A DNA stretch of 58,985 bases, filler included, from Sanchytrium tribonematis (Eukaryota), in the NCBI GenBank assembly GCA_018985235.1. It is 5 parts of 5 records of this genome, joined end to end, with 100 filler letters (N's around TTAATTAATTAA, not from the genome) between each part and the next. Parts side by side here need not be neighbours in the genome. Positions count along the whole stretch, not along the records: positions 23,667 to 35,388 come from JADGIG010000251.1; 4 more parts are not named here. The stretch is one strand, 5' to 3'. The position numbers and the translations under genes are program-made. Positions 11,744 through 47,288 of this stretch are shown here, piece by piece (position 1 is the stretch's first letter; each line of letters begins with the position of its first letter). The notes beneath the pieces are model-generated. The model saw only the letters and a list, made by a program, of their open reading frames with translations. It searched no databases and was not told where the DNA came from.

Positions 11744-11843
11744 NNNNNNNNNNNNNNNNNNNNNNNNNNNNNNNNNNNNNNNNNNNNTTAATTAATTAAN
11801 NNNNNNNNNNNNNNNNNNNNNNNNNNNNNNNNNNNNNNNNNNN
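11744..11843. other. Artificial contig linker
   Basis: 44 N + TTAATTAATTAA (stops in all six frames) + 44 N. Confidence 0.98.
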
Positions 11844-15873: not shown

Positions 15874-16236
15874 TTAGAAATAGGACTTTATTTTAATACC
15901 TTCTGGATCAAGAGGAAGTTGGGTAGGAAGAAGCTTATCTTGCGCTAATTTTGTCTTGTAAGGACTTTCAAGTCCTCTTTCTTTTGCAGCGTGGAGAATT
16001 CTGACTGTATTTCTATCAGATTCCGCTTGTAAAAAAGGCATCAAGCTAATTCTAAGCCATGCTTTTTCTCTTTTCAGCTCTTCTTGCTCCTCAAATCCTT
16101 TCAAAAAATGATACCAGCCATAACCCATGAAAGAGAAGACACCTAATAAAAGTAATGCACTTGATGGCCCTCGATTTGGTAGATTTCTTTGGTATTTGAT
16201 TGATGCAAATTTTTCTTTGGGTGGCAAATCTTGCAT
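15874..16236 (-). CDS. NDUFA13: Mitochondrial complex I subunit NDUFA13/GRIM-19
   Basis: MQDLPP...IKYQRNLPNRGPS, TM segment, ELKREKAWLRISLMPFLQAESDR. Confidence 0.92.
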   Translation of the reverse strand: MQDLPPKEKFASIKYQRNLPNRGPSSALLLLGVFSFMGYGWYHFLKGFEEQEELKREKAWLRISLMPFLQAESDRNTVRILHAAKERGLESPYKTKLAQDKLLPTQLPLDPEGIKIKSYF

Positions 16237-20476: not shown

Positions 20477-20570
20477 CTCCTAGATGATTCTAGCCAATTA
20501 CGATTCGTCGCGAATCCCTCTAATTTCTCTAAATAAATATTTTGAAATCCACCCCTTTCGTATATCAAAA

Positions 20571-21512
20571 ATGAAATTGAATTCAGAAGTTGCTAGTGAC
20601 AGCAGTAAAGCTGTTGCAAACTATATTGGAACCTTAAACCAAGAAAATAATGACCCTAGTATCCAAAACAATTTATTTGAGCCATTTGAGTTGCTCGAAA
20701 TCCCTCACAATCAAATGCCGTTATATCCGGCTCCATTACCACCAAATTTTAATGCTGCTGCCTATGTAGCAGAGACCACCACTCGAATTAACACTGCAAA
20801 ACTAGCCGCGAAAGCTAAAGGTATTGCGAAACCAGTGTCGTCAAAGCCTACATTAAAACAGCAGCCCCAAATACTTAGAGAGGCCATCAAAATGACACCC
20901 GGTAGAGCTCCAGATGATTTGAGAAAAGCTGTTTTATCGGGTTTTTTAGCATATAAAGATGATTTGAAACGATTAGGTGGTAGAACCAGTGAGAAACAGA
21001 TTGTGAAAAGAAAAATCATTGACAACTTTCTAAATAACCGAGTTTTTAGTGGAGTAGACATGAGTGTAGTTGATGAGAAATTTATTGCGGCTATTTATGA
21101 TCTTGAACATACAAATTTCGTAAGATACATGGAAAGAGCAATGAAAAGTGGTTCAGGAGCCACTAAAAAAACTGCTCTGTTTGATTTAGGGTTTGAATTA
21201 TGGAAAGGAGACCCAAAAGCGATTGAACCAGTTCGTATAAAATTAGGCAGACCAGTTGAAGAAATTACACGTGATATGGTGACTCCCAAATTTGAGCCTA
21301 TAAAACCAATACAAGATGATGACTTAAAGCAGCTGCACAACAAAGCCACAAAGAAGAAGTCCGATGATGCCAATAGTCTTAGTTTAAAAAACGAAACAAT
21401 GATGACGATTCGTGATACCAACAAGAGATTTAATTCATATATGGATACAAGTGAAGAATATATGAAATTAAAGATTCAATTGATGTTAAAACAATTAAAT
21501 GGAGAACAATAA
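20571..21512 (+). CDS. Probable Harbinger ORF2 (Myb/SANT-like DNA-binding partner)
   Basis: Convergent with a Harbinger transposase; central KSGSG...LFDLGFELW..DP...P pattern and coiled-coil C-terminus resemble PIF/Harbinger partner proteins. Start could be 20484 or 20571. Confidence 0.6.
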   Translation: MKLNSEVASDSSKAVANYIGTLNQENNDPSIQNNLFEPFELLEIPHNQMPLYPAPLPPNFNAAAYVAETTTRINTAKLAAKAKGIAKPVSSKPTLKQQPQILREAIKMTPGRAPDDLRKAVLSGFLAYKDDLKRLGGRTSEKQIVKRKIIDNFLNNRVFSGVDMSVVDEKFIAAIYDLEHTNFVRYMERAMKSGSGATKKTALFDLGFELWKGDPKAIEPVRIKLGRPVEEITRDMVTPKFEPIKPIQDDDLKQLHNKATKKKSDDANSLSLKNETMMTIRDTNKRFNSYMDTSEEYMKLKIQLMLKQLNGEQ

Positions 21513-21576: not shown

Positions 21577-22795
21577 TTATCCATCAAACAAAGACATGAT
21601 ATACTGGCAATAAATTTCTCTGTTTCCTTGAGAAAATGCACGTCTATTATCATCATTATTCTCCATTTCACCAAATATTGCACTTAATTGAGACACTTCC
21701 CTACACATTTCATAAAACTTCATCTGATTGGTATCCATTTCAATCAAACCAATACTTGTATCACCTAAATTAATTGCAATCACCAATATCAATACAATAA
21801 TTGTGTATTATCATCAATGCTTTGGTTAATTTGACATGCATGGACTTGGAGACTGCAACTGCAAAACTGAGAAATTTCCATCTTCTCTTTATCATACCAA
21901 ATGTCATTTCTGTTTTTACTCGTGCCCTGCTCAGATGTAAATTGAATAAATTTCGCACATCACTACATACTCGAATTTCATTGATGTCAAAAGGCACAAA
22001 CATGTTTGGTTGTATAGGGAACCCACCATCTGCAACAACAACATACTCTAAACCAATTTGATCTAACCATGGCTTTAAATTAGATGTGTTAAAACCATAG
22101 GAGTCCTGTCTACACCCAGGAATACCCAAATCAGCACCAATTACTCGACATTTAGCATCTACCATACAGATACAATTAAGACTATAGAAACCTTTATGGT
22201 TATAATAGCTAGTTTCTGTACCTTTTTCAGTTATGGCAATTGGAAAATGGACACCATCGATTGCGCCGCACACGTTTGGAAATATTGATTTTGAATAAGT
22301 TTTAAAATCAGAACAATTTTGTTTAATTTGTTCTATCGAGGACGGTAGAGAAATGTAGCTATCAAATACCTGTAAAATAGCATCAGTAAATTCATAAATT
22401 ATTCGTCTAGCTGTTGATTCAGATAATCCAAATGCAAATCCAGCATTAAATATGTCTGGATCTCTACCGCAATAATACAAAAACATGCCAAATCGAATAG
22501 AATCATTGATTCTAGGTCTTCCAGTAGTGTTAGGTGCAGCACTATCCAAATGTGGCTTAATTATGTCCAAAAAAGAAATAAATGTTTCTGGCGAAAGTCG
22601 ATAAATCTTAATAAAACGTGCTCTGGATATAGCGTTGTTTTCAATTTGTTCAATCGGGTCATGTAGTCTTACATAATCAAAATATTCTCTATGTTGCAAA
22701 TTAGTGATAGATTGATTGTAAAACAATTGAACGTTTGTTAAATATTGCGCAATTAGTGGAATTCCAGTTATTATTTCTTGATCTTCCTCTAACAT
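21577..22795 (-). CDS. PIF/Harbinger (HARBI1-like, DDE_Tnp_4) transposase, 2 exons: 22795-21784, 21764-21577
   Basis: GAIDGVHFPI, YNHKGFYSLN, ADGGF, RVKTEMTFGMIKRRW, IIHNYC. Removing the 19-nt intron gives a 399-aa protein. Confidence 0.92.
21765..21783 (-). other. 19-nt spliceosomal intron in transposase
   Basis: gtgattgcaattaatttag; joins the two ORFs in frame. Confidence 0.75.
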
Positions 22796-23566: not shown

Positions 23567-23666
23567 NNNNNNNNNNNNNNNNNNNNNNNNNNNNNNNNNN
23601 NNNNNNNNNNTTAATTAATTAANNNNNNNNNNNNNNNNNNNNNNNNNNNNNNNNNNNNNNNNNNNN
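23567..23666. other. Artificial contig linker
   Basis: N44-TTAATTAATTAA-N44. Confidence 0.98.
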
Positions 23667-23737
23667 GTCGTATAATTGAGGGATCATGGCAGATGACATT
23701 TCAATAAATAGGGGGTTTTGAAAAATATTTTAAGAAT

Positions 23738-25049
23738 TTATTTTTTCAAACTTTGTAAGATTCCATTTGTATCTGCAATTTTACCAAACCATAAATCTAT
23801 AAAATCATTAATTTCTTGATTGGCTTTACTCTGAATCACATCTGTCGTACTAGAATTCATTTTGAAATACGTGGTGCATCCCATACCTTTACTTTGAGTC
23901 AATTGAGCCGTAATAGTTAAATCTTTGTCATTTTCATGAGTTTGCATCTCACTAAACATTTGTTTGCTAATCATTCCACGATATTTAGCATTATTAGCAT
24001 GAAAGAACATGAAAGACCCATCTATCCATTTATGCACGAATATTAAACCACAAAAAAAGTGTTTTTCATTATCTTGATAGCCTACAAATGTGGGAAGATT
24101 TAATATCTCATAATAGGGTTTGTTTAATGCCAATGCTGCAAATCTAAATACATCTTTATCACCAAATAAAAAAGAATACCTAAATAAATGAAAATGACCA
24201 ATAATCATGATTTTGAAGCATTGTAAACCCTAATAATAGGGTCTCATAGTGTATGTTTTTATTGACGACTAATTGACCACTCTCATTTTCAAATCCTTCT
24301 TTGCATTTCACATTAAAAATATCAAAAATGGGATTATTTGGATTTGTTTTCCACGTGTCTTTCCATAGTAATAAACCAGTATTTAAATATTCTAATGAAC
24401 TAAATAGTATTTCAGGATCTTGCATTAAATAATTATCATCATCTAAATATAATATTTCTTGAAAATTGGTGGCTAAAAGAGCTGCTAATTTTAAATGATA
24501 ATTTCTAAATCCACCACTAAATTGGATTGGAATACCATTAAATTGACGTCTCACTAGACTATATACAGATACATCGGGTATAAGACTGATAATTCGAACT
24601 TCTTTTTCATTTAATTCGTCATGGTGAAATACTTCAATGGGTAAACTGGTTTTTGCTCGCAATGTTAATAAACCAGCTACAGTAATTTGGAAATAAGTAG
24701 AACTAGTGACATAAACAATGCCTTTTCCATTTCCAACGTGTCTTTGTTTAATTTTCATTAATTTATCTAATTTCCGTTGAGCACGATTGAGTAATATGTC
24801 ATCAAAATCATTCCATAAATGACTATCTGGTTTATTATCTATTTGTTCTGGATATATATTAGGGATAGGACATGATTGAATGAGATTTAATTTGTGTTTT
24901 TGTTGATCGGATAAATATGGCTCAATTTTAGACCAGTCAGTGACATGTTCTTTGATGATATGGGATACGGTGTCATAAATTATAAATGGCTGTTTAGAAT
25001 CACTGGATATTATAAAAAGAAATAGGATGAAAATGAATTTTGAAATCAT
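23738..25049 (-). CDS. GT71 alpha-mannosyltransferase (MNN2-like), 2 exons
   Basis: N-terminal TM/signal, LPIEVFH, KLAALLATNFQEILYLDDDN, WKDTW, ESGQLVVNK; spliced junction gives HDYWYSFLFGDKDVFRFA. Confidence 0.88.
24180..24198 (-). other. 19-nt spliceosomal intron
   Basis: gtcattttcatttatttag; restores the GDKD motif in frame. Confidence 0.85.
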
Positions 25050-25083
25050 GTTTCAAAGAAAATTTAATTTTGAGATACTTTAT

Positions 25084-25933
25084 TTAAGCATGAACTGAAG
25101 ATCTATTCAGCAATTCTATATCAGTGACTCTTCTTTGATTGTTAGCTGGTCTTTCCATTGATTCCGCTACTGAAGATTGATGCTGTGAACTGCGAATGTT
25201 TTCAATTCCAGAAATTGCATTGGCGCGTCGATTATCCTTGATATGCTTATTAGCAACCATCAAAAAGTTACTGACAACACTCACAAATCCAGTCAATGCA
25301 ATAAATCCAACAGAAGAATCCAATAATCTCCCTTCTTCAAAAAATACCCCAGCCAATTGCCAAAAATGAACATGGTCCTGCAAAACAGAATGCAAATATG
25401 ATGGTGTAGTAACTAATGACTAATAATCTAGTCTGCTTTCCATTCTCTCGTGCCATTGGGTTATTTCGAATCATAAACACGATTTTGAGCAACAAATATC
25501 CTCCAAAACAAAACATAAATGGCATGATGCTCAAATACGCGTAAAATCCAATCGTACTTGATAAAAACCCTCTTGCACTTAATCCATACACCATACAAGC
25601 AACATACGTCAAGAAATATCCAACATATCCAAATATCTTGACATTTTGACTCAACAAGTGATAAACACGCACAAATGGATATGCAGAAAACAAGATACAA
25701 TACGTAGCAGTGAAAAATGGCATCATCACCCAAAAGAAAGGGGTTCTCGTGTAGATCAGGGCTGTAATGGAAGCAGTTAACATGCTCACGTCAATCGCGA
25801 TCACATAATATTGGGCCTTGCTGGATTCAAAGATCATCAATGCGATAGAACTTAAACATAAACCAGATAGAGATAGAATAAACCCCATTCCATAACTGTA
25901 AGAAAAGTAAAATGTATCGTGAATCAAAGTCAT
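25084..25933 (-). CDS. Multi-pass membrane protein (about 7 TM) split by a frameshift
   Basis: Two overlapping hydrophobic ORFs. The frame switch falls at a T6 run near 25340: homopolymer error, pseudogene, or atypical 16-nt intron. Confidence 0.55.
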
Positions 25934-26401
25934 GACTTCAAATGGCTTTTATTTGAGCCCCTTTTTAGATTTACTACGATGCTCGTGTTAACTCGGCTCG
26001 ATGGTAATTAGAAAATGATGGATGCGCGTGTTGAAATTTATTTAAAATGTGTTAAAGCAATCCAACCAGCTGAATTGAAATCAAGTAATACTCATCGGAA
26101 TATGTTCTTGGAGAAGCAAGTTATCTAATGACGCGTAATACTTGAGTCATTAAATACCAGTGCAACTTCTGTTTTTCAATATCATTAATTTGAAAAATTG
26201 TGGCTTGAGACAAATGATCCAATAGCAACATTATTAACAATTTACAGTGGAATTCATAGTACACCTATACATCTCATGGGGCAATTATTTTTGATTGACC
26301 ACAAAAGAAAGTTGTATCACCAGCATATTCATTTAATTGGGTATTTTCACATTGTTCTGTGATTTGTCTCAAAAGAATCACTTTCCATTTTCATTTTAAC
26401 C

Positions 26402-27043
26402 ATGTTGTTACTTACATTGGTAAAGGTATTTTCTACTTTTAATTCCCGAATCAATGTCTATTGCAAATCTAAGAAATGGTATCAGTTCACTTTGGATTTA
26501 GATGGAGATGAAGTTTACAAAAAGCAAACTGGTCTGTCTCTAAAGTATAAAAAGGGAAATCATGAACTTAGAGAATACAATAAGATTCAAATTAGACTTG
26601 ACCATGGAACTCCCATTCATAAAGAAAATACTCGAGAGATGTCGTTCCACATTCAACGAAATGACATCTTTAATTGGACGCAAATCTACCCCACCACCCA
26701 AATTGAAGAAACAGTATCAGATACGAGTGTATTGAAGAATCCCATTTTATTCCATGGATATAACTGCTACCCTGTTAAATTGTTTAATTTTAAATTAATT
26801 TGTAAAAAAGAAGACGGTCAGAATGCGTTTAAACCCATTGAGATTTTTTCAAATAATTTTGAAATTCACTTAAAGAATTGGCTGGTTATTGGAAAATACG
26901 TAAACGGTGAGGAGTATCAAATTAAAATCAAATCCAACAATATGGATATTGGACTAGCTGTAAAATACAATCAAAATGGCAATTTATATAAGTCGCAAGA
27001 CATAATTGAGGGTTTAAGCTGCAGTATTGATCCATATGATTAA
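26402..27043 (+). CDS. Hypothetical protein with short signal-like N-terminus
   Basis: 213-aa ORF starting MLLLTLVKVFS. Confidence 0.65.
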   Translation: MLLLTLVKVFSTFNSRINVYCKSKKWYQFTLDLDGDEVYKKQTGLSLKYKKGNHELREYNKIQIRLDHGTPIHKENTREMSFHIQRNDIFNWTQIYPTTQIEETVSDTSVLKNPILFHGYNCYPVKLFNFKLICKKEDGQNAFKPIEIFSNNFEIHLKNWLVIGKYVNGEEYQIKIKSNNMDIGLAVKYNQNGNLYKSQDIIEGLSCSIDPYD

Positions 27044-27048
27044 ATTAT

Positions 27049-27648
27049 TTATTTATTAATTTCCAATTTGGTGGATTTATGATTCAATATTTCTGCCTCA
27101 ACATAAAACTTTTTAGGATATCTCGCAATATTCTTTAAATAATCCAAATTTTGTTTTCTCTCGTCTTTCCAATGAGTACTGACTGGTTTATTTCTTGCCT
27201 TGTCAATCCTCTGTTGAATTTTAACATTCTCCAATTCAATTTTATCTTGTTGTTTTTGACGATGCATTTTTAATCTATTTTCCATTAATTGGCTAGATTG
27301 AGATGGTTTGGGGATACTAGGTTGAATAGATTGTATTTTATGGTATAATTTCATATTCTGTCTCTCAATATCACGATTTCTATCTTTTTCCATTTGTAAT
27401 TTCTTACTTGAAGAAGGATGGCGCATATATTTAGGTGGACTGGTATCTACAATGGATTTGACATTTAATATCTTCTCTGATAGTTTATCTTTGAGATAAT
27501 TATCATATTTCTTGGCTACATGGACATTATGATGTCTATTCAAATCTAGAGTCTTATTTTTGATAATTGGAAGATTTAAATCATGAATGAGTTGGCCTTC
27601 TACTATGGCTTTGATTTTAGTATCCATAGAAGGGATAAAAAGTGCCAT
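27049..27648 (-). CDS. CFAP97/KIAA1430 (hemingway)-domain cilia/flagella-associated protein
   Basis: KSIVDTSPP...KKLQMEKDRNRDIERQNMKLYHKIQSI...KIELENVKIQQRI pattern. Confidence 0.7.
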   Translation of the reverse strand: MALFIPSMDTKIKAIVEGQLIHDLNLPIIKNKTLDLNRHHNVHVAKKYDNYLKDKLSEKILNVKSIVDTSPPKYMRHPSSSKKLQMEKDRNRDIERQNMKLYHKIQSIQPSIPKPSQSSQLMENRLKMHRQKQQDKIELENVKIQQRIDKARNKPVSTHWKDERKQNLDYLKNIARYPKKFYVEAEILNHKSTKLEINK

Positions 27649-27781
27649 TTTTGGGGGAATTTTCTGGCCGATTTTGGAAAGAGCCGGGGTTTGATTTCAG
27701 GTTTCATAGACAACAATTTATTCTGTGATTGGCAGTTAGGGCTGATAAATCTACTAAAGAAAAGGGCTGTCACGAGTTTTA

Positions 27782-28954
27782 ATGATCTTCTTGATGCTCG
27801 TATTTGCCATGAACAAAAGATCATTAGCTAAATTGTTTGGTAGACGAACAAGATCACCTGTTACTGCCACAGCGGTACAACCAATTCTTGTGAATACGCA
27901 GGATGAAATGGATATCAAATTACTAGATGAGTATTACAATGAAATGGTTAAAATTATAGAAAAGATACAATCTAAGAGTGATGAAGAATTGAATGATGCG
28001 CAACAGCGAAGTTCATTCTATATTGCAATTCAAATAAAAGAGGCACTACTAAATAAAGGTAACAAAATCATAGATACCGAACAAAATAGTGAAATTAACA
28101 ACAAGAAACAAGAAATTGTAAAAGAAATTAATGAAAAAATTCAAGCTATGACTTTTAACAAACAATTATTCTGGTTACAAATGACTGATTCCAAAAGGTA
28201 TGATTTTGCAGATATGATTTTGACAACTTATTATCTCAAAATGACACGACTTAAAGTGGAATTTTTAACAGGATTAGAAGCATCAAAATTAAATCAAGAA
28301 AATATTCAATTGTATGTTACCCAACTTCATGAATTAGAAACAGATCAAAGAAGTGAGATAGAAGCAATTATACTAAGACGGAAGACCAAACCAATGGAAG
28401 ATTATGAACAAGAACAGAACAATGAACGAATCAAGGGAGATTCTTCAATCAAACTCAAAAAACTGGAGTTGAATGAAAGGTTAATGTTTCAATATGATAG
28501 TTATATGGAACCAGAAAATCATAAATACCAACTTACAAAGCAATTAATCGATCTAATAACTGAAAATGAGAAATATTCAACGCTTAAAGAGGAATCCAAA
28601 ATGAAACGTGTTGATTTACATATCGTTAAAAATGTAGAAACGAAAAAGACGGTTTATGACATGCATGAAATATTAAAGTTTGATATTACTAAATTGAAAA
28701 ACAAAATTAGATTCCAAATGAATCGTTTGCGACTAAACAAAATTCGAAATTTCAAGAGTTTAATGGATTTAAAAAATTCAAGATCGCCATCGACAAATTT
28801 GGAACCACTAGAAGAGCTCGAAGCATCATTGGCACTAACCGGCGAATATTACAGTGTGAAATTACAATCATTACCACCAATTCAAGAAGAGGAGATTAAG
28901 CCGCAAAGTTCCATCTCAGCCACAAAGCATATTGACAGGGAAATTAATCTCTGA
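27782..28954 (+). CDS. Putative secreted helical protein, family member 1
   Basis: MIFLMLVFA N-terminus; charged helical body; C-terminal LEPLEE and LPPIQEEE; AATAAA just after the stop. Confidence 0.8.
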   Translation: MIFLMLVFAMNKRSLAKLFGRRTRSPVTATAVQPILVNTQDEMDIKLLDEYYNEMVKIIEKIQSKSDEELNDAQQRSSFYIAIQIKEALLNKGNKIIDTEQNSEINNKKQEIVKEINEKIQAMTFNKQLFWLQMTDSKRYDFADMILTTYYLKMTRLKVEFLTGLEASKLNQENIQLYVTQLHELETDQRSEIEAIILRRKTKPMEDYEQEQNNERIKGDSSIKLKKLELNERLMFQYDSYMEPENHKYQLTKQLIDLITENEKYSTLKEESKMKRVDLHIVKNVETKKTVYDMHEILKFDITKLKNKIRFQMNRLRLNKIRNFKSLMDLKNSRSPSTNLEPLEELEASLALTGEYYSVKLQSLPPIQEEEIKPQSSISATKHIDREINL

Positions 28955-29120
28955 AAGAAATAAATATTTCAATGATTCCATTTCCAATGACAACTCGATT
29001 GACTCGCAATTGAATTCCTTGGGGGTAAATTTTAGGAGTTGCAAGGAATCGGCAAGCTTGTTTGTGATTGGTTAATAGGCCTGTTGGACTACTTAACACC
29101 AACACATGCCCCACCAACTA

Positions 29121-30491
29121 ATGATCTACTTGATACTCGTATTTGCAATGAGTCCCGGATCATCATTGTTACAAGCATTGATGAGAAATAGAAATGCTAG
29201 AAGAATTGTCCCTGAACCATCCTCAGCATCAGCACAAATCATAAGAACTAGAGCTGATGTAAATCGAATTTATGATGAAATCATGTCATCTTATAAGCTC
29301 GAAGTAGCCAATTTATTGCAACAATCCTATTCAAGTGGGTTGGATGCTGGAATTGAACAAATTAAATTTAAAATTGATTCGCTCAATAGTCTTTTACCAA
29401 CTGCAATTAGCAATGTCGCATCAAGAGATTTCAGCAGTATTCCAAGCATATTTAAAAATCACATCAATATCCAACGAGTTCAAACTCGACGAGACATTCA
29501 AGCGCTGACAATTGAGTTGAATCCAGATCAACAATTACAGTTTTTAGAAGCAGTGGATCCTCAAGGATACAAAGTAGCGGAACAGATTCAATCAGTATTT
29601 GACAATCATATGCAAAGACTTAAAGGCAATTTGTTGGATGAATTAAACAAAAATGATAGAAATGAAAATGTTATTCAACAAATTACAACTAAAATCAACG
29701 AATTATTTGCTGAAAAATCAACTATTTTTGGTGAGATTATCAATGGACAGGGAAACGAAGTACAGAGAGACTATCAGACTGAAATTAGTGCTTTAGAAAT
29801 TGATTATCGAGTATTCAGTAGAATTACAGATTCAATTTTGCGTCGAACAAATCCAATTCATAAAATTGAATATCTCAAAATCACTGAGCCATTTAATGTA
29901 AAGTATCAAATTGCATTCAATGATTTAGAGAGTTTAAAAGAAGTTTATAAAATCAGAAAATTAAAACAAGTGGATATTCCATTGATTCATGCGCTAAATG
30001 ATGCCACTGATTTACAAGATCCAGCCTTAAAATTGAAATTAAATGAGTTGAAAAATACAGCCAATCTATTAAATCAAGAATATATCCAACGTATTCTCAG
30101 AATACCAACCTTGACGTATGAAGAAATGAAAAGTGATATCAATGAGAATCGTAAAGAACGAGATAAAAGTAAAGCTCAAAATGAATTGGATTTAAAGACA
30201 TTTCGACAATTTGGTTCAAATGCAGAAATTACAAAAAAAACTGAATTTGATTATTATCGTAAGCCAACTCCATTTGCATCCAATACAAGACAATCAATGG
30301 ATGCAATGCGTAGAGAGATACATACAATCACCATTCCTAAAGTTGAAATAGATACTGGGTTGACAGATACTGGGTTTACAGATACAAGCATTAAATTGCC
30401 AACTATTCCAGAATCATCAGAATTAGAATCAGGTTCTACAATCAGCCATGAAGTAGGAGAAGCAAAACTTGCAGATCACCCTATAAAATAG
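29121..30491 (+). CDS. Putative secreted helical protein, family member 2
   Basis: MIYLILVFA N-terminus (ATG 29121); C-terminal LPTIPESSE. Confidence 0.8.
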   Translation: MIYLILVFAMSPGSSLLQALMRNRNARRIVPEPSSASAQIIRTRADVNRIYDEIMSSYKLEVANLLQQSYSSGLDAGIEQIKFKIDSLNSLLPTAISNVASRDFSSIPSIFKNHINIQRVQTRRDIQALTIELNPDQQLQFLEAVDPQGYKVAEQIQSVFDNHMQRLKGNLLDELNKNDRNENVIQQITTKINELFAEKSTIFGEIINGQGNEVQRDYQTEISALEIDYRVFSRITDSILRRTNPIHKIEYLKITEPFNVKYQIAFNDLESLKEVYKIRKLKQVDIPLIHALNDATDLQDPALKLKLNELKNTANLLNQEYIQRILRIPTLTYEEMKSDINENRKERDKSKAQNELDLKTFRQFGSNAEITKKTEFDYYRKPTPFASNTRQSMDAMRREIHTITIPKVEIDTGLTDTGFTDTSIKLPTIPESSELESGSTISHEVGEAKLADHPIK

Positions 30492-30891
30492 ACAATAAAT
30501 AGATGGTATAACATTTGATGCACAATTGCACTAAAGTATCAAAGAATATGAATCCAGAATCATCAGATTATATCATGATAGATCAAGAATTTTAGATTAC
30601 GTTATTAGAGGTCAACAATATAAATACTAACAATTATAATTTGAAATGATTATTATTCTACTGTCCATACTGCGTTGAAAACCATTTCAAAATAGGTCAA
30701 TTCGAACGTCGATTTGAATTTTTGTTACATCAGGAATTAGGTATCGATTTTGTCTGATAATTAATCATCAGAAACAATCATTGGATCAATTAAATGATGT
30801 GAATATCGAGCTCATTTCAAACAGTGTCATTGATTGGATATCAGGATTATCAAGACAATAAAAAGAACCATGAATGATTGAATTATCGAAA

Positions 30892-31539
30892 ATGATTTAT
30901 TGGATGATTTTATTTGCAATACCAGTTTTATCAACAGAGCAGAACAGATTGATTAACATAGTGAATGTGTTTACTGATTACCAAATTGCAAAAGTGCAAT
31001 ATGAATATTTACAATCATTAAGTGGAGGTAATGAGGTCTTGAAAAATAAGGAAGTCCTTTTGGCTAAAGTCAATAAGCTCGTAAATTACAGAAATGCAGC
31101 TATTGAACAAATTAATCATGGTAAATTGAAGGTATTTCAATTACACCCTAATTTGCAAAACTTTGATCCGAATTTATCAAAATGGTCAATTTTACAATTA
31201 CACAAGGAAATGAACCAATTTTGGAATGGATTGAGTGACGAAAAGAGAGAAATATATAAAAAATCAGGATTTCAGAGTCATGGATGGACTGGATGGAATA
31301 ATGGTAACACTAAAGGAGGAGAAACTGGCACTGTTCAAATTAAATTGCAAGAGGCACTTAGTGAGGCCAAATCAAATGTTGCAGCAAATATACCATCATC
31401 TAAAGTTCTTTCCCCTATTGGTACTGCAGACCAGTATGTGGCAGAAGGTCCTAATATTAATTTGGATTCAATCGCGGGAGTGACTTCTGGAATTGAAGGT
31501 ACGGACCCAAAAGGCGAAGTAAGAAAACCTGGTTTTTAA
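30892..31539 (+). CDS. Putative secreted protein, family member 3
   Basis: MIYWMILFA N-terminus (ATG 30892); AATAAA overlaps the stop. Confidence 0.75.
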   Translation: MIYWMILFAIPVLSTEQNRLINIVNVFTDYQIAKVQYEYLQSLSGGNEVLKNKEVLLAKVNKLVNYRNAAIEQINHGKLKVFQLHPNLQNFDPNLSKWSILQLHKEMNQFWNGLSDEKREIYKKSGFQSHGWTGWNNGNTKGGETGTVQIKLQEALSEAKSNVAANIPSSKVLSPIGTADQYVAEGPNINLDSIAGVTSGIEGTDPKGEVRKPGF

Positions 31540-31726
31540 TAAACTATTATTTTGATTAAATGCAGTTAATCCAAATTGTTCAAGGTATTTCAGATTCCGC
31601 AGGGGTAAATGCCTGATAATTATCAAATTTCAGTTACAATCATTGGCCACAGACTATTTTGCAGCTTTATTATTGGGTGACGGGATATTCAAATGATTCA
31701 AAAAGCATGTACCATCCAAATGTATT

Positions 31727-32656
31727 ATGATCTTCTTGATTTTATTTGCAATGGCAACATCAACTCAGCAACAACTCAAATCAAAAATTAACTATGTTTA
31801 CAGCATGAAAATGCTAGAACTGAAATTGAAATTTGTAAAACCAAATGGTAAAGACTCAATTTGGGAAAGTTTTAGAAATTATTGGGGTGGGGATGAAATG
31901 ACGAGATTTAAAACAAATATTGCAGCACTTGAAGCAGAAAAGAATGCTGCATTGGAAAAATTAAAAAATGGTGACCTTGGTAAACTTGACCAATATAATT
32001 TGATCCATACAGATGCCGACTTGAAGACTCAAAAAATAGAGGAATTAAGAGCGGCATTGTCAAAATTGTCTGATGACAGATTATCTGTTTTCGATCAACT
32101 ATTTTTTGATCAATATACAAAAAGGTTTCATAGAGTAAACGATTTGGAAAAAATTCAAGCATTCAATGCTATCATGAAAGATACGGTAACTACTGATCTT
32201 GTTATACAATATTTTAAAGTTGACAATGACAGAAAGTCTGACTTGAATATGGCTAGATCTGATCCAGATTTTCTTCCGTATTCTGATAAACTGACACAGA
32301 CAAGGATCAAATCAATGTCTCACGTGGAAATGATTTATAAGACTTTCGAATCAGAACTATTGCATCCATATGTGCGTCATATGCTTAAAAATTTAGTGGA
32401 TTGGAATAATCGTCAAGATGGAGAACCAAATCTGCAAGATTTTAAGAGTGAAATTCAAAAAGAAATCAAAAAATTGCCAAAGGTCATTAAATGGCGAAAT
32501 CTACAAAACTCAAGAATAAAATTTCAGCCATCACTGGAAATAATACCTGAAGATGCATCTCTATCAGAAGGAACAAACAATAAAGAGCAAATTACGGAGC
32601 CTGATGGGGCAAACCATAATAGCCAAGAACCATCGAAACCAGAATTAATTGTTTGA
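31727..32656 (+). CDS. Putative secreted protein, family member 4
   Basis: MIFLILFA N-terminus; C-terminal LEIIPED. Confidence 0.8.
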   Translation: MIFLILFAMATSTQQQLKSKINYVYSMKMLELKLKFVKPNGKDSIWESFRNYWGGDEMTRFKTNIAALEAEKNAALEKLKNGDLGKLDQYNLIHTDADLKTQKIEELRAALSKLSDDRLSVFDQLFFDQYTKRFHRVNDLEKIQAFNAIMKDTVTTDLVIQYFKVDNDRKSDLNMARSDPDFLPYSDKLTQTRIKSMSHVEMIYKTFESELLHPYVRHMLKNLVDWNNRQDGEPNLQDFKSEIQKEIKKLPKVIKWRNLQNSRIKFQPSLEIIPEDASLSEGTNNKEQITEPDGANHNSQEPSKPELIV

Positions 32657-32722
32657 GATGAATAAAATTTAAAACATTCACAATGCTATTTCATATCTCT
32701 ATTTCAATGAAATCCAAATGCC

Positions 32723-33388
32723 ATGTCACTCAAATCTTCAAATTATCTCAGAATTGGATTTTGGAATATTAATGGCAAATTACTCAAAAATCTACCCATT
32801 TTTAAATCAAACTTCAAATCTCATCAATTTGATATATTTTATTTACTGGATACAAAATGCAAACAACACTTAAATGGATATGATGCATGTTTTCCAACGA
32901 CAACACATTCTTGTGGCATGTCTATTTTGTATAATTCTAAAACACGGCAAATGATTGAATATATTCAGGGATATCAATATTGGACAGTCATAAAAATGCC
33001 TCAATTGGCTATATTAAGTATTTATAATGCACCTAGTATAGAGAATCATAGTATTTATGAGATTATTAGGGATTTTACAATGTCACATGAAAATATTTCA
33101 AAATATATTTTAGGTGATTTTAATATGAATTTATCAAGAATGAATAAATGGGATAAATTATTGTTGAATCAATTTATTCAATTTGGATATTGTAAATGTG
33201 ACTATACTCCACCCAATTTGACTACATTTGAAAGAATGTGCAACAAGAAATTACAATCTTCGCAAATTGATCATGTCTTTGCATGTCATAGGCATCAATC
33301 TATTCAATTACAAGTACAACCACGATGCCATCCAATATCCAACATATCTGATCATAAATTGATTGAATTTTCAGTCCCAATTTATTAA
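32723..33388 (+). CDS. Stand-alone EEP/APE-like endonuclease domain protein
   Basis: FWNING, SIYNAP, ILGDFN, SQIDHVF, ISDHKLI; stop and AATAAA directly after the domain; no RT. Confidence 0.82.
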   Translation: MSLKSSNYLRIGFWNINGKLLKNLPIFKSNFKSHQFDIFYLLDTKCKQHLNGYDACFPTTTHSCGMSILYNSKTRQMIEYIQGYQYWTVIKMPQLAILSIYNAPSIENHSIYEIIRDFTMSHENISKYILGDFNMNLSRMNKWDKLLLNQFIQFGYCKCDYTPPNLTTFERMCNKKLQSSQIDHVFACHRHQSIQLQVQPRCHPISNISDHKLIEFSVPIY

Positions 33389-33402
33389 AATAATAAATTT
33401 AA

Positions 33403-34359
33403 TTAAGCTGTTAAAATATGATATCTGACATCTTGTGGTACTCTTCCAAATGCAATTTGTGTCTCTGAAAGTACTCCAAATGTCCATGGATCCATTTCAC
33501 TCCAACAACACCCCGTGATACTCGGTTCATGAATATTATCCCATTTTGCAATTAATGAATTTTCTAATAGATTCTCTTGATCCATCACTTGCTTACTAGA
33601 ATATTGTGCTAAATCATATAATATCACAGCACCATCTGCACCTGTTGTCATGATTAATTGGTCATAACTCGGATTATATTTGCAATTCATGACCCAATGC
33701 GTGTGATCATGTAATTCCATAACTGCAGTACTTGGATTTCGGATATCCCACACCAGGCAGCATCTATCCATCCCGCCACTTGCAAAATAATGAGATACAT
33801 TTGAATTGACATCTAATGACAACACTTGTCCCTGATGCTGATTAAACTCAATTTTACTTTTACTAAGTGGATCTACCATGCAAATAGTAGACCCGGAAGC
33901 GATTAAATCATATTTATTGGATTTGCAAATAGTTTGAATTTGCTTAAAGAATGATGTGGGTGTAAATTGCCATGTATTGGCATCTAAATACCCTAATTGA
34001 GCATCATTGGGTGTATTGTTGGTAGTGGGTGTCTTTTTAACAGCTAATAAATCATGATTTAGTACGATATGCTCTAAATTGACTGAATAATTATCATGAT
34101 TTGTGATTCTTAAACCAAATTGGTTTTTATCATAATAAGTATACATGAATAGATCCTTGTACATATTGCATTGGATAATACTGACATCTACTTCAATTTG
34201 TTCTGATTGAACTGAAAAATGGTCATTTAATGTTAATAATGAAATGGAGTTTCTTTCTTTTATAGAGCATGTACCTGCTATAAATTGGTTTTTATGGCAT
34301 TTTAATGCATTTCCAATACAGGGTAATGAAAAATTGGTTTGTTCAGTTAATTCTGTCAT
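33403..34359 (-). CDS. WD40 protein, EIPR1/TSSC1-like
   Basis: SGGMDRCCLVWDIR, HTHWVMNCKYNPSYDQLIMT, WSEMDPWTF. Confidence 0.8.
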   Translation of the reverse strand: MTELTEQTNFSLPCIGNALKCHKNQFIAGTCSIKERNSISLLTLNDHFSVQSEQIEVDVSIIQCNMYKDLFMYTYYDKNQFGLRITNHDNYSVNLEHIVLNHDLLAVKKTPTTNNTPNDAQLGYLDANTWQFTPTSFFKQIQTICKSNKYDLIASGSTICMVDPLSKSKIEFNQHQGQVLSLDVNSNVSHYFASGGMDRCCLVWDIRNPSTAVMELHDHTHWVMNCKYNPSYDQLIMTTGADGAVILYDLAQYSSKQVMDQENLLENSLIAKWDNIHEPSITGCCWSEMDPWTFGVLSETQIAFGRVPQDVRYHILTA

Positions 34360-34546
34360 AAAACAGTGTTTTGAAAAATAAAAAACACCGTGATTTCATC
34401 AGACACGTGAAGCCACTTCATATAATTTCAGATACTTTGATTGGTCACAGAGTATCACAAATCAATTACCAATATAATACAGGAAATGCGATTGGATGCT
34501 AGGGGCGTACATCAAACATAAAAGACGCACGCGACAACAAATTATC

Positions 34547-35194
34547 ATGATTTACTTGACACTAATAATTGCATTACCTTTTTGGGGACTGATTCGACCA
34601 GCAGATCCTTTGGCGAGTTATTCTGATACTCAGTTGATCCAAAAATATTATGATATTAAAAGCAGACAAATACAAGTTGAAATATTAAAATTGATTCAGC
34701 AAGATCCTAATGAGATACTCGCAAAAAATAACAAAATATTGCAATACGGCAAACTTTTTTCAAAAAATGAGATTCAAAGAACGAAGGATTTAAATGACTT
34801 GAAAATCACTGATGAAATGAAAGAAGTTATCAAAAAAAAAATTTTAAACATCCTAGAAAACGATGAGAGAAACAGAGTCATTTTAGAAAAAGGAAAATTT
34901 GGCGCTTTAGGAAAAAAGTTTGATTCATATATATTTAGTTTGAAGAATTCCCTACATTTACAGACCCTAAGGCAGCAACCATTTAAAGAGCATCTGCAAG
35001 ATGCAATTCGAGCTGCCGAATCTGACACTCAAGTAACTAGAAGCGACAGTACCAAACAAAGTAATCAAGCTGAAGTACTTGCAGAACAGCCTGTACTTGC
35101 AGAACAGCCTGGGAGTTTTACAACTAAGCCAACCGGATTGGAATACAAACTCCCTGCTGAAACTTTTCCAAGAGGGCGAGCAATTCCCGTTTAA
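34547..35194 (+). CDS. Putative secreted protein, family member 5
   Basis: MIYLTLIIA N-terminus (ATG 34547); AATAAA overlaps the stop. Confidence 0.75.
   Translation: MIYLTLIIALPFWGLIRPADPLASYSDTQLIQKYYDIKSRQIQVEILKLIQQDPNEILAKNNKILQYGKLFSKNEIQRTKDLNDLKITDEMKEVIKKKILNILENDERNRVILEKGKFGALGKKFDSYIFSLKNSLHLQTLRQQPFKEHLQDAIRAAESDTQVTRSDSTKQSNQAEVLAEQPVLAEQPGSFTTKPTGLEYKLPAETFPRGRAIPV
35075..35110 (+). repeat. Perfect 18-bp tandem duplication (VLAEQP x2)
   Basis: gtacttgcagaacagcct twice. Confidence 0.95.
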
Positions 35195-35388
35195 TAAATT
35201 TATCATCTTAATTCAAAACACTGTCTCAAATTAGTTCAAATGGAAGATTGGAATATCTCAGATCTTAAATATGCCATTTACATCATCAATACAAGCATGA
35301 TATCATTAGGACTATTAAATATGTTCCAATATTCATGTTTTAGAGCATTAAATATCATTTCAAGTTTATTTTTAATATCTGTGGGTAT

Positions 35389-35488
35389 NNNNNNNNNNNN
35401 NNNNNNNNNNNNNNNNNNNNNNNNNNNNNNNNTTAATTAATTAANNNNNNNNNNNNNNNNNNNNNNNNNNNNNNNNNNNNNNNNNNNN
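35389..35488. other. Artificial contig linker
   Basis: N44-TTAATTAATTAA-N44. Confidence 0.98.
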
Positions 35489-36541
35489 TTTGTTCTCAAT
35501 TTTCCAGAAATCATGTACAATAGTACCCCAGAAAAGAAAGGATATACCAAACTGAAAGAATATGAGCCCCCGAACATGTAATTGTGTATGGTTAAGAACC
35601 CAAACCAAGAAAATAGTTGAAAATAAAGTAAGCACCAATGAATCCTACAATATCGAATTATTATAAAAAATGTAATATTCAGTGCCCACTCGATAGATAG
35701 TGACCAGCCTTAGTAAATTTTAAATACTTGGTGCATTGCAAACAAATCTATAATTGAACCATCCATTTCTGACAGGATTATCATAATATCTCCACATGTG
35801 AGTCAGGCTTAAACAGCGATATAAAACATCCGAATGAAGCAATCTTGTATTGACTGGGTCAAACACATTTATATAATAAAAACTAATTGCTGCATAAATC
35901 AATGCGGTGAACCAATGCAATGGATAAAATCTCGAAATTCGACTCGCCATCAAATTCCATAAATTGCTACTTCTTGTAGAATTCCAATACACTTTCGCTA
36001 AAATAAACCCGCTAAGCACTACAAATACTTCCACCATACAATGTCCAAATCTAGACATGTCAAAAATGAAAGATTTTTCTTGCTTAATTGTTGTCCAATA
36101 ATCTTCGGAAACGATGTTAGAATTAATAATATGGTAAAATACCACAATAACACAGGCAATTCCTCGTAGTGAATCCAGATGATGACTCCTTCCAGATGTC
36201 GTCGGTACATTTTCCAACAAGTACAAAGTTAATTTGGTATTTGGTATTTTAGAGAAAGTTGCGTCTATTTTCCCCAGTAAAGTATGTATACAGTTTTTCA
36301 ATTTGAACAAGATGTATTCGAGTGATTCTCTTGATTTCAAAAAGTAATAAAAATGTGTCAAAGTATATATAATTCGTAGCCAAATGGGAATTTTCATTAA
36401 TTCGTAACTTGCCAAGTTGACGATTAAAGAAAAGACAAGCCAATAAATGTCCTTATTTTTTGGGCATGATTTTTGCTTTGATTCATGACTATCAAACTTT
36501 TCATCTATATTTTTGTTTAATGGTAAATATGGAGTGTCCAT
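35489..36541 (-). CDS. Acyltransferase-3 (OafA-like) membrane protein, 3'-truncated by contig end, 2 exons
   Basis: HLDSLRGIAC, VEVFVVLSGFIL, RISRFYPLH; spliced junction gives NAPSWSLSIEW. Confidence 0.88.
35709..35727 (-). other. 19-nt spliceosomal intron
   Basis: gtatttaaaatttactaag; restores the WSLSxE motif. Confidence 0.85.
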
Positions 36542-40691: not shown

Positions 40692-40955
40692 CTAAAATTT
40701 TATTATGTAACTTTTTGAATTCGTAGCAAATGAGCTTTTAGGATCTAGTGTGTCTGTTTGTTTGCTATAATTTCCAACCAACCTAAAGTCCCTTTCTAAT
40801 AACATTTTTTCAAATAAATCCATTCCGTGTCGCTGTGGTACTCCATCGTTGACCCAGGTGGACAATTTTTTGTTTGCAAACGCTCCAGCAGCCAACACTC
40901 CGGTAATAATACCCAAAGGTAGTAAACTTTGAACTGGAATTCTGAAATTGGACAT
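40692..40955 (-). CDS. NDUFA1: Complex I subunit NDUFA1 (MWFE)-like
   Basis: IPVQSLLPLGII...NDG..QRH..D....MLLERDFRLVG...QTD matches the fungal MWFE pattern; ATG at 40955. Confidence 0.75.
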   Translation of the reverse strand: MSNFRIPVQSLLPLGIITGVLAAGAFANKKLSTWVNDGVPQRHGMDLFEKMLLERDFRLVGNYSKQTDTLDPKSSFATNSKSYIIKF

Positions 40956-41128
40956 ACTGTTTGGAAATAAACTCCTGCTGGCTATAAACAAAAAACAGAT
41001 GCGGCCATTCAATTTTTTATTATTGGTACAAGCAAAATATATGAAATGCTTGCCGAGCAAGACTTCCATGACTTGTCATTGGTGTTTCTTTGCTTTGGCA
41101 AATAAAATTCCCCGAAATCACAAATCAA

Positions 41129-47188: not shown

Positions 47189-47288
47189 NNNNNNNNNNNN
47201 NNNNNNNNNNNNNNNNNNNNNNNNNNNNNNNNTTAATTAATTAANNNNNNNNNNNNNNNNNNNNNNNNNNNNNNNNNNNNNNNNNNNN
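47189..47288. other. Artificial contig linker
   Basis: N44-TTAATTAATTAA-N44. Confidence 0.98.

Follow-up and report, generated by a model that had tools for sequence, protein, structure and literature searches.

A cluster of five co-oriented genes in Sanchytrium tribonematis encodes cysteine-free proteins with a common short hydrophobic leader, three of which carry a putative docking motif for the B56 subunits of the phosphatase PP2A, LxxIxE, near the C-terminus. The window, by which we mean the whole stretch of DNA analysed (58,985 nucleotides of assembly GCA_018985235.1), comprises five contigs of ~11.7 kb each joined by N spacers, so that gene order across spacers is meaningless; the cluster lies in the third contig (23667-35388, JADGIG010000251.1). 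Our best explanation, offered tentatively, is that the genes form an effector cluster of a sanchytrid-type fungus and that the products of genes 1 and 2, and perhaps of gene 4, may dock on host PP2A-B56.

Five co-oriented genes

The members of the cluster are as follows.

Gene 1, 27782-28954, plus strand: 390 amino acids (aa); 9-residue hydrophobic leader, basic stretch, predicted helical body and disordered tail; no Cys, no N-glycosylation sequons
Gene 2, 29121-30491, plus strand: 456 aa; paralog of gene 1; no Cys, no sequons
Gene 3, 30892-31539, plus strand: 215 aa; common leader; no LxxIxE
Gene 4, 31727-32656, plus strand: 309 aa; leader one codon shorter; no Cys, no sequons
Gene 5, 34547-35194, plus strand: 215 aa; common leader; no LxxIxE

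Each open reading frame (ORF) is a single unbroken frame with AATAAA at the stop codon or a few bases from it, and genes 1-3 are already recorded as predicted proteins. An initial annotation of this DNA had placed five plus-strand ORFs and their leaders, and all of them are found exactly where it put them. Second versions of genes 1, 2, 3 and 5 come from one DNA sequencing run, X1, which is the sole DNA run containing the region and may be the source of the window itself, hence not independent support.

LxxIxE motifs

The motifs and related sites, all on the plus strand, are listed below; the three LxxIxE motifs and LEPLEE again lie precisely where they had been annotated.

28871-28888, plus strand: gene 1, LPPIQE followed by EE; strict LxxIxE; coil in the structure model; no difference listed in the covering X1 contig, contigs being a source that hides rare variants
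28799-28816, plus strand: gene 1, LEPLEE; secondary, degenerate B56-type site, located where a predicted helix begins in a low-confidence region of the model
30396-30413, plus strand: gene 2, LPTIPE followed by SSE; strict LxxIxE; core as in the validated B56 site of human Cyclin-G1
32534-32551, plus strand: gene 4, LEIIPE followed by DAS; strict LxxIxE, the weakest of the three
31408-31425 and 31462-31479, plus strand: gene 3, LxxI near-misses without the invariant Glu
32480-32524, plus strand: gene 4, two RVxF-type (PP1-docking) matches within a basic stretch that immediately precedes LxxIxE

The 1,585 residues of the five proteins contain three strict LxxIxE matches, all near C-termini (27-40 residues away; 27-51 if LEPLEE is included), in tails that are rich in Pro, Ser, Thr and Gly (0.27-0.38 versus 0.14-0.18 in the bodies). 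Strict matches within the last 60 aa are present in 3/5 cluster genes versus 1/47 other window ORFs of at least 100 aa. When residues are shuffled within the tails, at least three of the five carry a strict match in 12 of 20,000 runs, and in only 2 of 50,000 if an acidic residue is also required after the motif. The motif enrichment is real yet modest.

Motif quality was judged against curated validated B56 sites (the 25 rows shown of supplementary file 2, PMC6715587). The gene 2 core, LPTIPE, is identical to that of Cyclin-G1 (PMC6715587) and has a single mismatch, over six positions, to a high-affinity inhibitor peptide (PMC7327492), while LPPIQE of gene 1 differs at two positions from the AIM1 core (PMC6715587). 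The gene 4 motif has Ile at position 3, which occurs in none of the 25 validated motifs listed (PMC6715587), and human predictions that resemble it rank low (position weight matrix p ~2.4e-4). Acidic or phosphorylatable residues at positions 2 and 7-9 are described as favouring a B56 motif (PMC10970375); at positions 2, 7, 8 and 9, gene 1 has two acidic residues, gene 2 one acidic residue and two Ser, and gene 4 two acidic residues and one Ser. Candidate clients bearing LxxIxE have been catalogued in human, yeast and Arabidopsis (PMC10418862). Judged by sequence, then, the proposed B56 docking appears plausible for genes 2 and 1 and weaker for gene 4, and genes 3 and 5 lack the motif.

Gene 4 allows a second interpretation, in which it docks PP1 via RVxF-type sites, instead of or besides PP2A-B56, and the cluster hits host phosphatases more broadly. 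PP1 is docked mainly through RVxF (PMC6715587), and two RVxF-type matches stand 7 and 18 residues ahead of the gene 4 LxxIxE, where the predicted helical part ends. However, the pattern is common, being present in the last 70 residues of 6/47 background ORFs, and the same basic residues fit a patch that strengthens B56 binding: a basic stretch upstream boosts binding in some B56 clients (PMC7108865), and the 18 residues preceding the gene 4 motif include five Lys or Arg and no Asp or Glu. We consider PP1 docking by gene 4 very improbable.

Leader, composition and probable secretion

The leader is an eight-residue hydrophobic run ending in Ala, with an eight-residue hydropathy of 2.6-3.2. Among genes 1, 2, 3 and 5, 20-27 of 30 leader bases are identical, compared with 8-14 upstream and 7-12 downstream, and the likeness is limited to the first 30 bases. 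Differences at third, first and second codon positions number 23, 14 and 9, and the gene 4 leader shows an in-frame 3-base loss.

The composition of the proteins is as distinctive as their leader. Cysteine is absent from all 1,585 residues versus 30 expected, and only 1/25 background ORFs is Cys-free. We also find a single N-x-S/T sequon in the five proteins versus 12.9 expected from whole-protein shuffles and 10.9-11.9 from local shuffles; when shuffled in 30-residue blocks (11.4 expected), a count as low as that observed is reached in none of 5,000 runs. Seven other patterns show no comparable loss, and 25 background ORFs have 60 sequons versus 62 expected. An ALG10 gene on the fourth contig of the window suggests that the organism possesses the N-glycosylation pathway. 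Sequon avoidance would fit only proteins that cross the lumen of the endoplasmic reticulum (ER) yet are kept unglycosylated, for membrane threading or for work in the cytoplasm. Because of the hydrophobicity of the leader, its coding constraint and the sequon loss, we hold it very probable that the proteins enter the ER, and the earlier description of them as secreted gains indirect support from this constrained leader and the specific loss of sequons.

It is quite improbable, in our view, that the proteins are not secreted, the leader being a membrane anchor or translation starting at a second Met (codon 9 or 10; genes 1, 2 and 4), with the motif binding the parasite's own B56. In favour of this, the leader has just nine residues, a second ATG directly follows it in the three motif-bearing genes, genes 1 and 2 are basic over residues 10-30 in the manner of organelle-targeting sequences, and LxxIxE ordinarily acts in the cell's own cytoplasm. 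However, genes 3 and 5 have no Met there, the leader varies like coding sequence, including the in-frame loss in gene 4, and sequon loss would be purposeless for proteins that are never in the ER lumen.

In genes 1 and 2, the leader is followed directly by a basic stretch that includes paired arginines (27809-27871 and 29148-29210, plus strand); residues 10-30 of gene 1 have a net charge of +6. Candidate roles for this stretch are a propeptide cut by Kex2, a membrane-binding helix and a signal for targeting to host organelles. A loose end behind 29150 in run X1 runs on in frame with a similarly basic stretch.

A secreted protein need not reach the host cytoplasm, and the cluster might instead encode adhesive, cyst-wall or rhizoid-coat components whose motifs never meet B56. 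The long helical, coiled-coil-like bodies would suit a structural role, and parasite surface proteins likewise evolve fast. Further, none of the five proteins has either export motif, RxLR (after the leader) or RRL, within its first 60 residues. Fungal wall and surface proteins are, however, usually glycosylated and often disulfide-bonded, whereas the five cluster proteins avoid both glycans and disulfides. They also have no second membrane segment and no hydrophobic C-terminal anchor, the best 19-residue hydropathy after residue 15 being 0.59. We regard an extracellular role as improbable, and delivery of the proteins into the algal host cell as probable.

Kinship of the five genes

With the leader removed, the bodies of genes 1 and 2 are homologous (22% identity over 324 aa, E 1e-11, z 8.3). 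Genes 3 and 4 give a weak signal (z 4.9), and the remaining 8 of 10 pairs have z ≤2.0. Profile comparisons among the five bodies matched the leader or nothing, and reversed sequences scored equally high. A common helical hairpin, hinted at by alignment, failed a leave-one-out analysis, in which reversed sequences matched the scores of the real ones in 4/5 cases, and was rejected. The idea of one family with variable bodies thus holds for genes 1 and 2, but homology beyond the leader is not shown for the others; what unites all five is leader and composition.

Although the proteins of genes 1 and 2 are only 22% identical, 27 of 30 bases of their leaders agree, which suggests nucleotide-level constraint or a recent exchange of leaders between them. 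The leader probably occurs at no fewer than one further locus, since in run X1 unlike sequence abuts the 37-base leader of gene 5 on both sides. Three matches to the leader pattern in metagenome contigs, in frames of 24, 25 and 48 codons, were dismissed as chance.

Structure predictions

The predicted structure of gene 1 is all-helical with a mean predicted local distance difference test score (pLDDT) of 48, best at residues 41-190, and the model of gene 4 is uninformative (pLDDT 35). In both of these poor models the motif regions are coil with pLDDT ~27-36, and the composition of the tails agrees with disorder. A Foldseek search with a low-confidence model gave no match at E 0.001. The best VIA-align hit (Z 9.3 over 68 residues, root mean square deviation 1.2) reflects generic helical hairpins located where the model's confidence is low. 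Given such models, the missing fold match is no evidence of a new fold.

Homologs and polymorphism

A homolog search with gene 1 returned only gene 1 itself, and a profile of genes 1 and 2 matched those two proteins alone among 1.84 billion representatives. A five-gene profile found genes 1 and 3 only and is insensitive, since it missed gene 2, which is present in the collection. Gene 4 had no match in phage records, and a sequence search of the Protein Data Bank gave a single weak match (E 0.17).

Run X1 contains second versions, at about one-third of the depth, in which the bodies of genes 2, 3 and 5 are skipped and no alignment at 80% is obtained. For gene 2, a contig joins 29150 to 30537, the body being unmatched at 80%; the second version of gene 3 skips 30966-31591, and that of gene 5 skips 34698-35170. 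In contrast, a stretch of housekeeping sequence 2,488 bases long is free of differences. These second versions may be alleles of one individual or population variants. Together, orphan status, the absence of cysteine and divergent second versions support the earlier label of the proteins as effector-like.

Codon changes were counted from the best supported 40 of 128 differing places, 32 of the 40 being in coding frames. In gene 2, 12 codons of this sample carry replacement changes and 6 silent ones, versus 2 and 9 in EIPR1, the neighbouring control gene (Fisher p 0.02), or ~0.55 versus ~0.06 replacement-to-silent changes per site. Within 28191-28517, 20 codons of gene 1 are changed in its second version (16 replacement and 4 silent, in the frame of the window), which also has a one-base gap at 28285; 11 further N-terminal differences were excluded, as 12 inserted letters blur the alignment there. 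This pattern is consistent with a broken copy that drifts neutrally.

Across 23667-35388, the variant contigs of run X1 come in pairs with a depth ratio of ~2:1 (44:22, 42:24 and 51:29; sums ~66-80), a pattern compatible with triploidy or with a mixed population.

Lineage

To place the organism, we turn to Xrn2, encoded on the second contig. Among the 120 matches listed, its top matches are a protein labelled P0004 (64% identity) and that of Amoeboradix gromovi (62%), and the remaining named proteins share 33-47%. In a quick tree with 25 rows, of which 24 were picked from the 120 listed matches to span the named groups, the window Xrn2, P0004 and Amoeboradix form a three-row clade on a long branch with a Shimodaira-Hasegawa-like approximate likelihood ratio test support of 100. 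As Amoeboradix is a sanchytrid parasite of algae, this clustering upholds the view that the DNA comes from a parasite. Sanchytrids are described as attaching to algae, encysting and piercing the algal wall via a short rhizoid (PMC8371127). The genome is compact and eukaryotic, and a flagellar CFAP97 gene adjoins the cluster.

Possible chance origin of the motifs and other points against docking

The proteins could be real host-delivered effectors in which LxxIxE is a chance product of acidic, proline-rich tails and PP2A is no target. We regard this as rather unlikely. The motif was picked after the fact. Enrichment over the other window ORFs, seen for the strict motif, is not clear for the loose consensus [LMFI]xx[ILV]xE, which is near background (3/5 versus 8/47) and arises in 1,271 of 20,000 shuffles. 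Some three-residue pattern is common to at least three of the five shuffled tails in 23% of runs with this spacing and in 96% with 16 spacings. If 100 equally specific motifs could have been noticed, p rises from 0.0006 to 0.06 (0.004 with acidic context); for 20-300 such motifs, it lies between 0.01 and 0.16 (0.001-0.012 with acidic context). The look-elsewhere estimates that speak for chance, 0.004-0.16, depend on these assumptions.

The distribution of the motif is a further point. It is present in just 3/5 genes: in gene 3 the LxxI sites lack the Glu, and the gene 5 tail has no match. The gene 4 motif is of a kind that ranks low among human predictions. The motifs of genes 1 and 2 may be non-independent, as the genes are paralogs, yet they do not align. 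Against chance stand the identity of the gene 2 core to a validated site and the closeness of the gene 1 core to that of AIM1. The more specific L-P-x-I-x-E is found in at least two of the five tails in 11 of 40,000 shuffles, and all three strict matches fall 27-40 residues from the C-terminus.

Other points concern secretion, variation and lineage. As a signal peptide, the leader would be very short, and it lacks a basic n-region. Sequon loss is not needed for export, as the Toxoplasma protein GRA16 is listed as N-glycosylated (PMC12019905). The replacement-to-silent ratio of gene 2 indicates weak constraint, and positive selection is not shown; the gene 1 copy with the one-base gap may be dispensable. 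Finally, the Xrn2 and ALG10 evidence sits on neighbouring contigs, which are assumed to be of the same organism.

Neighbouring genes and other features

Two unrelated genes lie between genes 4 and 5.

32723-33388, plus strand: interrupting ORF with a weak endonuclease/exonuclease/phosphatase domain; 8 Cys, 5 sequons; outside the group
33403-34359, minus strand: EIPR1-type WD40 housekeeping gene; interrupts the cluster and served as polymorphism control

The cluster, annotated as tandem, is therefore a co-oriented array but not a strictly tandem one. The interrupting ORF (32723-33388, plus strand) stands alone and resembles the endonuclease of non-LTR (long terminal repeat) retroelements. Adjoining the cluster is an orphan ORF (26402-27043, plus strand) whose 213-aa product begins with hydrophobic residues and has 4 Cys. 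A contig of run X1 (depth 22) swaps 26252-27016 for 34 letters, so that this ORF is present in one version and absent in the other.

On another contig, an ORF of 342 aa with no Cys (20484-21512, plus strand) was excluded as a member, as it has neither the hydrophobic leader nor similarity to the cluster; it is an orphan with no Pfam match. The ORF at 21770-22795 (minus strand) encodes a DDE_Tnp_4 nuclease or transposase, presumably of Harbinger type. At 35720-36541 (minus strand), an Acyltransferase-3/OpgC-like membrane protein is encoded next to a PAN-domain ORF and a Fringe-like glycosyltransferase; these genes possibly form a surface-glycan modification group. At 23730-23843, several loose ends in run X1 at the 3' part of a mannosyltransferase gene suggest that the genome has paralogous copies of that gene at other places. 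The complex I accessory subunits GRIM-19 and MWFE are encoded at 15874-16236 and 40692-41069 (both minus strand), and by these genes the parasite appears to keep respiratory complex I. The four spacers of the window (11744-11843, 23567-23666, 35389-35488 and 47189-47288) are identical, each consisting of 44 N, a 12-base all-frame stop linker and 44 N.

Proposed mechanism and comparison with known systems

We propose that the leader directs each protein into the ER and that the protein, free of glycans and disulfides, would exit the rhizoid and reach the host cytoplasm. There, as predicted from the motif, the disordered tail of genes 1, 2 and perhaps 4 would bind the B56 pocket. By analogy with GRA18 and Ebola NP, the helical body might hold a host protein or membrane site beside the phosphatase, leading to dephosphorylation, or the motif might compete with the host's own B56 clients. 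Genes 3 and 5 would use the same export route and likely have different targets. A wider version of this proposal is a genome-wide sanchytrid class of host-delivered effectors, with a portable 9-residue leader, avoidance of cysteine and N-glycans, unrelated helical bodies, and several tails that independently hijack algal PP2A-B56, perhaps also PP1; we think this somewhat unlikely.

The manipulation of algal hosts by zoosporic fungi is little described. In the literature searched, mostly without subscription journals, no paper joins LxxIxE, fungal and effector, and the matches listed include no study of sanchytrid effectors. The word effector is absent from the main text of the sanchytrid genome paper, whose supplements may list secreted proteins (PMC8371127). 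If the wider version is true, it would be the first LxxIxE mimicry from a fungus within the literature searched, and a first molecular entry point to sanchytrid control of algal cells. The proposal itself, if it holds, would provide named effector candidates and a signature (short leader, no Cys, no sequons) with which to list the whole effector set.

Several known systems act on the same phosphatase. In Ebola NP, HTLV-1 integrase and HBV core, the same motif is described as steering host PP2A-B56 to a chosen substrate, but these viral mimics are made inside the host cell and thus need no secretion or delivery (PMC10970375, PMC6715587). The Phytophthora effector PSR2 and related (L)WY effectors are secreted and combine a common PP2A-recruiting part with an otherwise variable protein; they bind the PP2A core via folded repeats and substitute for the regulatory subunit (bioRxiv 10.1101/2023.05.05.539533), whereas the linear motif of the cluster would bind B56. 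The cluster proteins have no Pfam match to the (L)WY family, and the fold search, made with a low-confidence model, gave only generic helical hairpins. Bacterial AvrE-family effectors are reported to interact with plant B'/B56 subunits, yet they are delivered by type III secretion and the interaction as described is not tied to LxxIxE (PMC10418862).

The closest parallel is GRA18 of Toxoplasma gondii, a secreted effector that has a signal peptide, contacts a host protein through its N-terminal part and carries a pair of LxxIxE motifs in its disordered C-terminal region; it binds PP2A-B56 in the host cytoplasm (PMC6214654). The concept of a secreted parasite effector with a C-terminal LxxIxE that binds PP2A-B56, put forward as possibly undescribed, is therefore not new. 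The layout of leader, N-terminal body and LxxIxE tail is the same, docking by the tail being predicted from the motif in our case. GRA18, however, is encoded by a single gene, has an RRL export element and is shown to bind, while the cluster has three motif-bearing proteins of a fungal lineage without such an element. No homology to GRA18 is detected, the profile of genes 1 and 2 having matched only those two proteins among the representatives searched. By analogy, then, the cluster proteins would work like GRA18 without being members of its family, and, if so, they would add a further instance in which unrelated parasites have converged on the pocket of B56.

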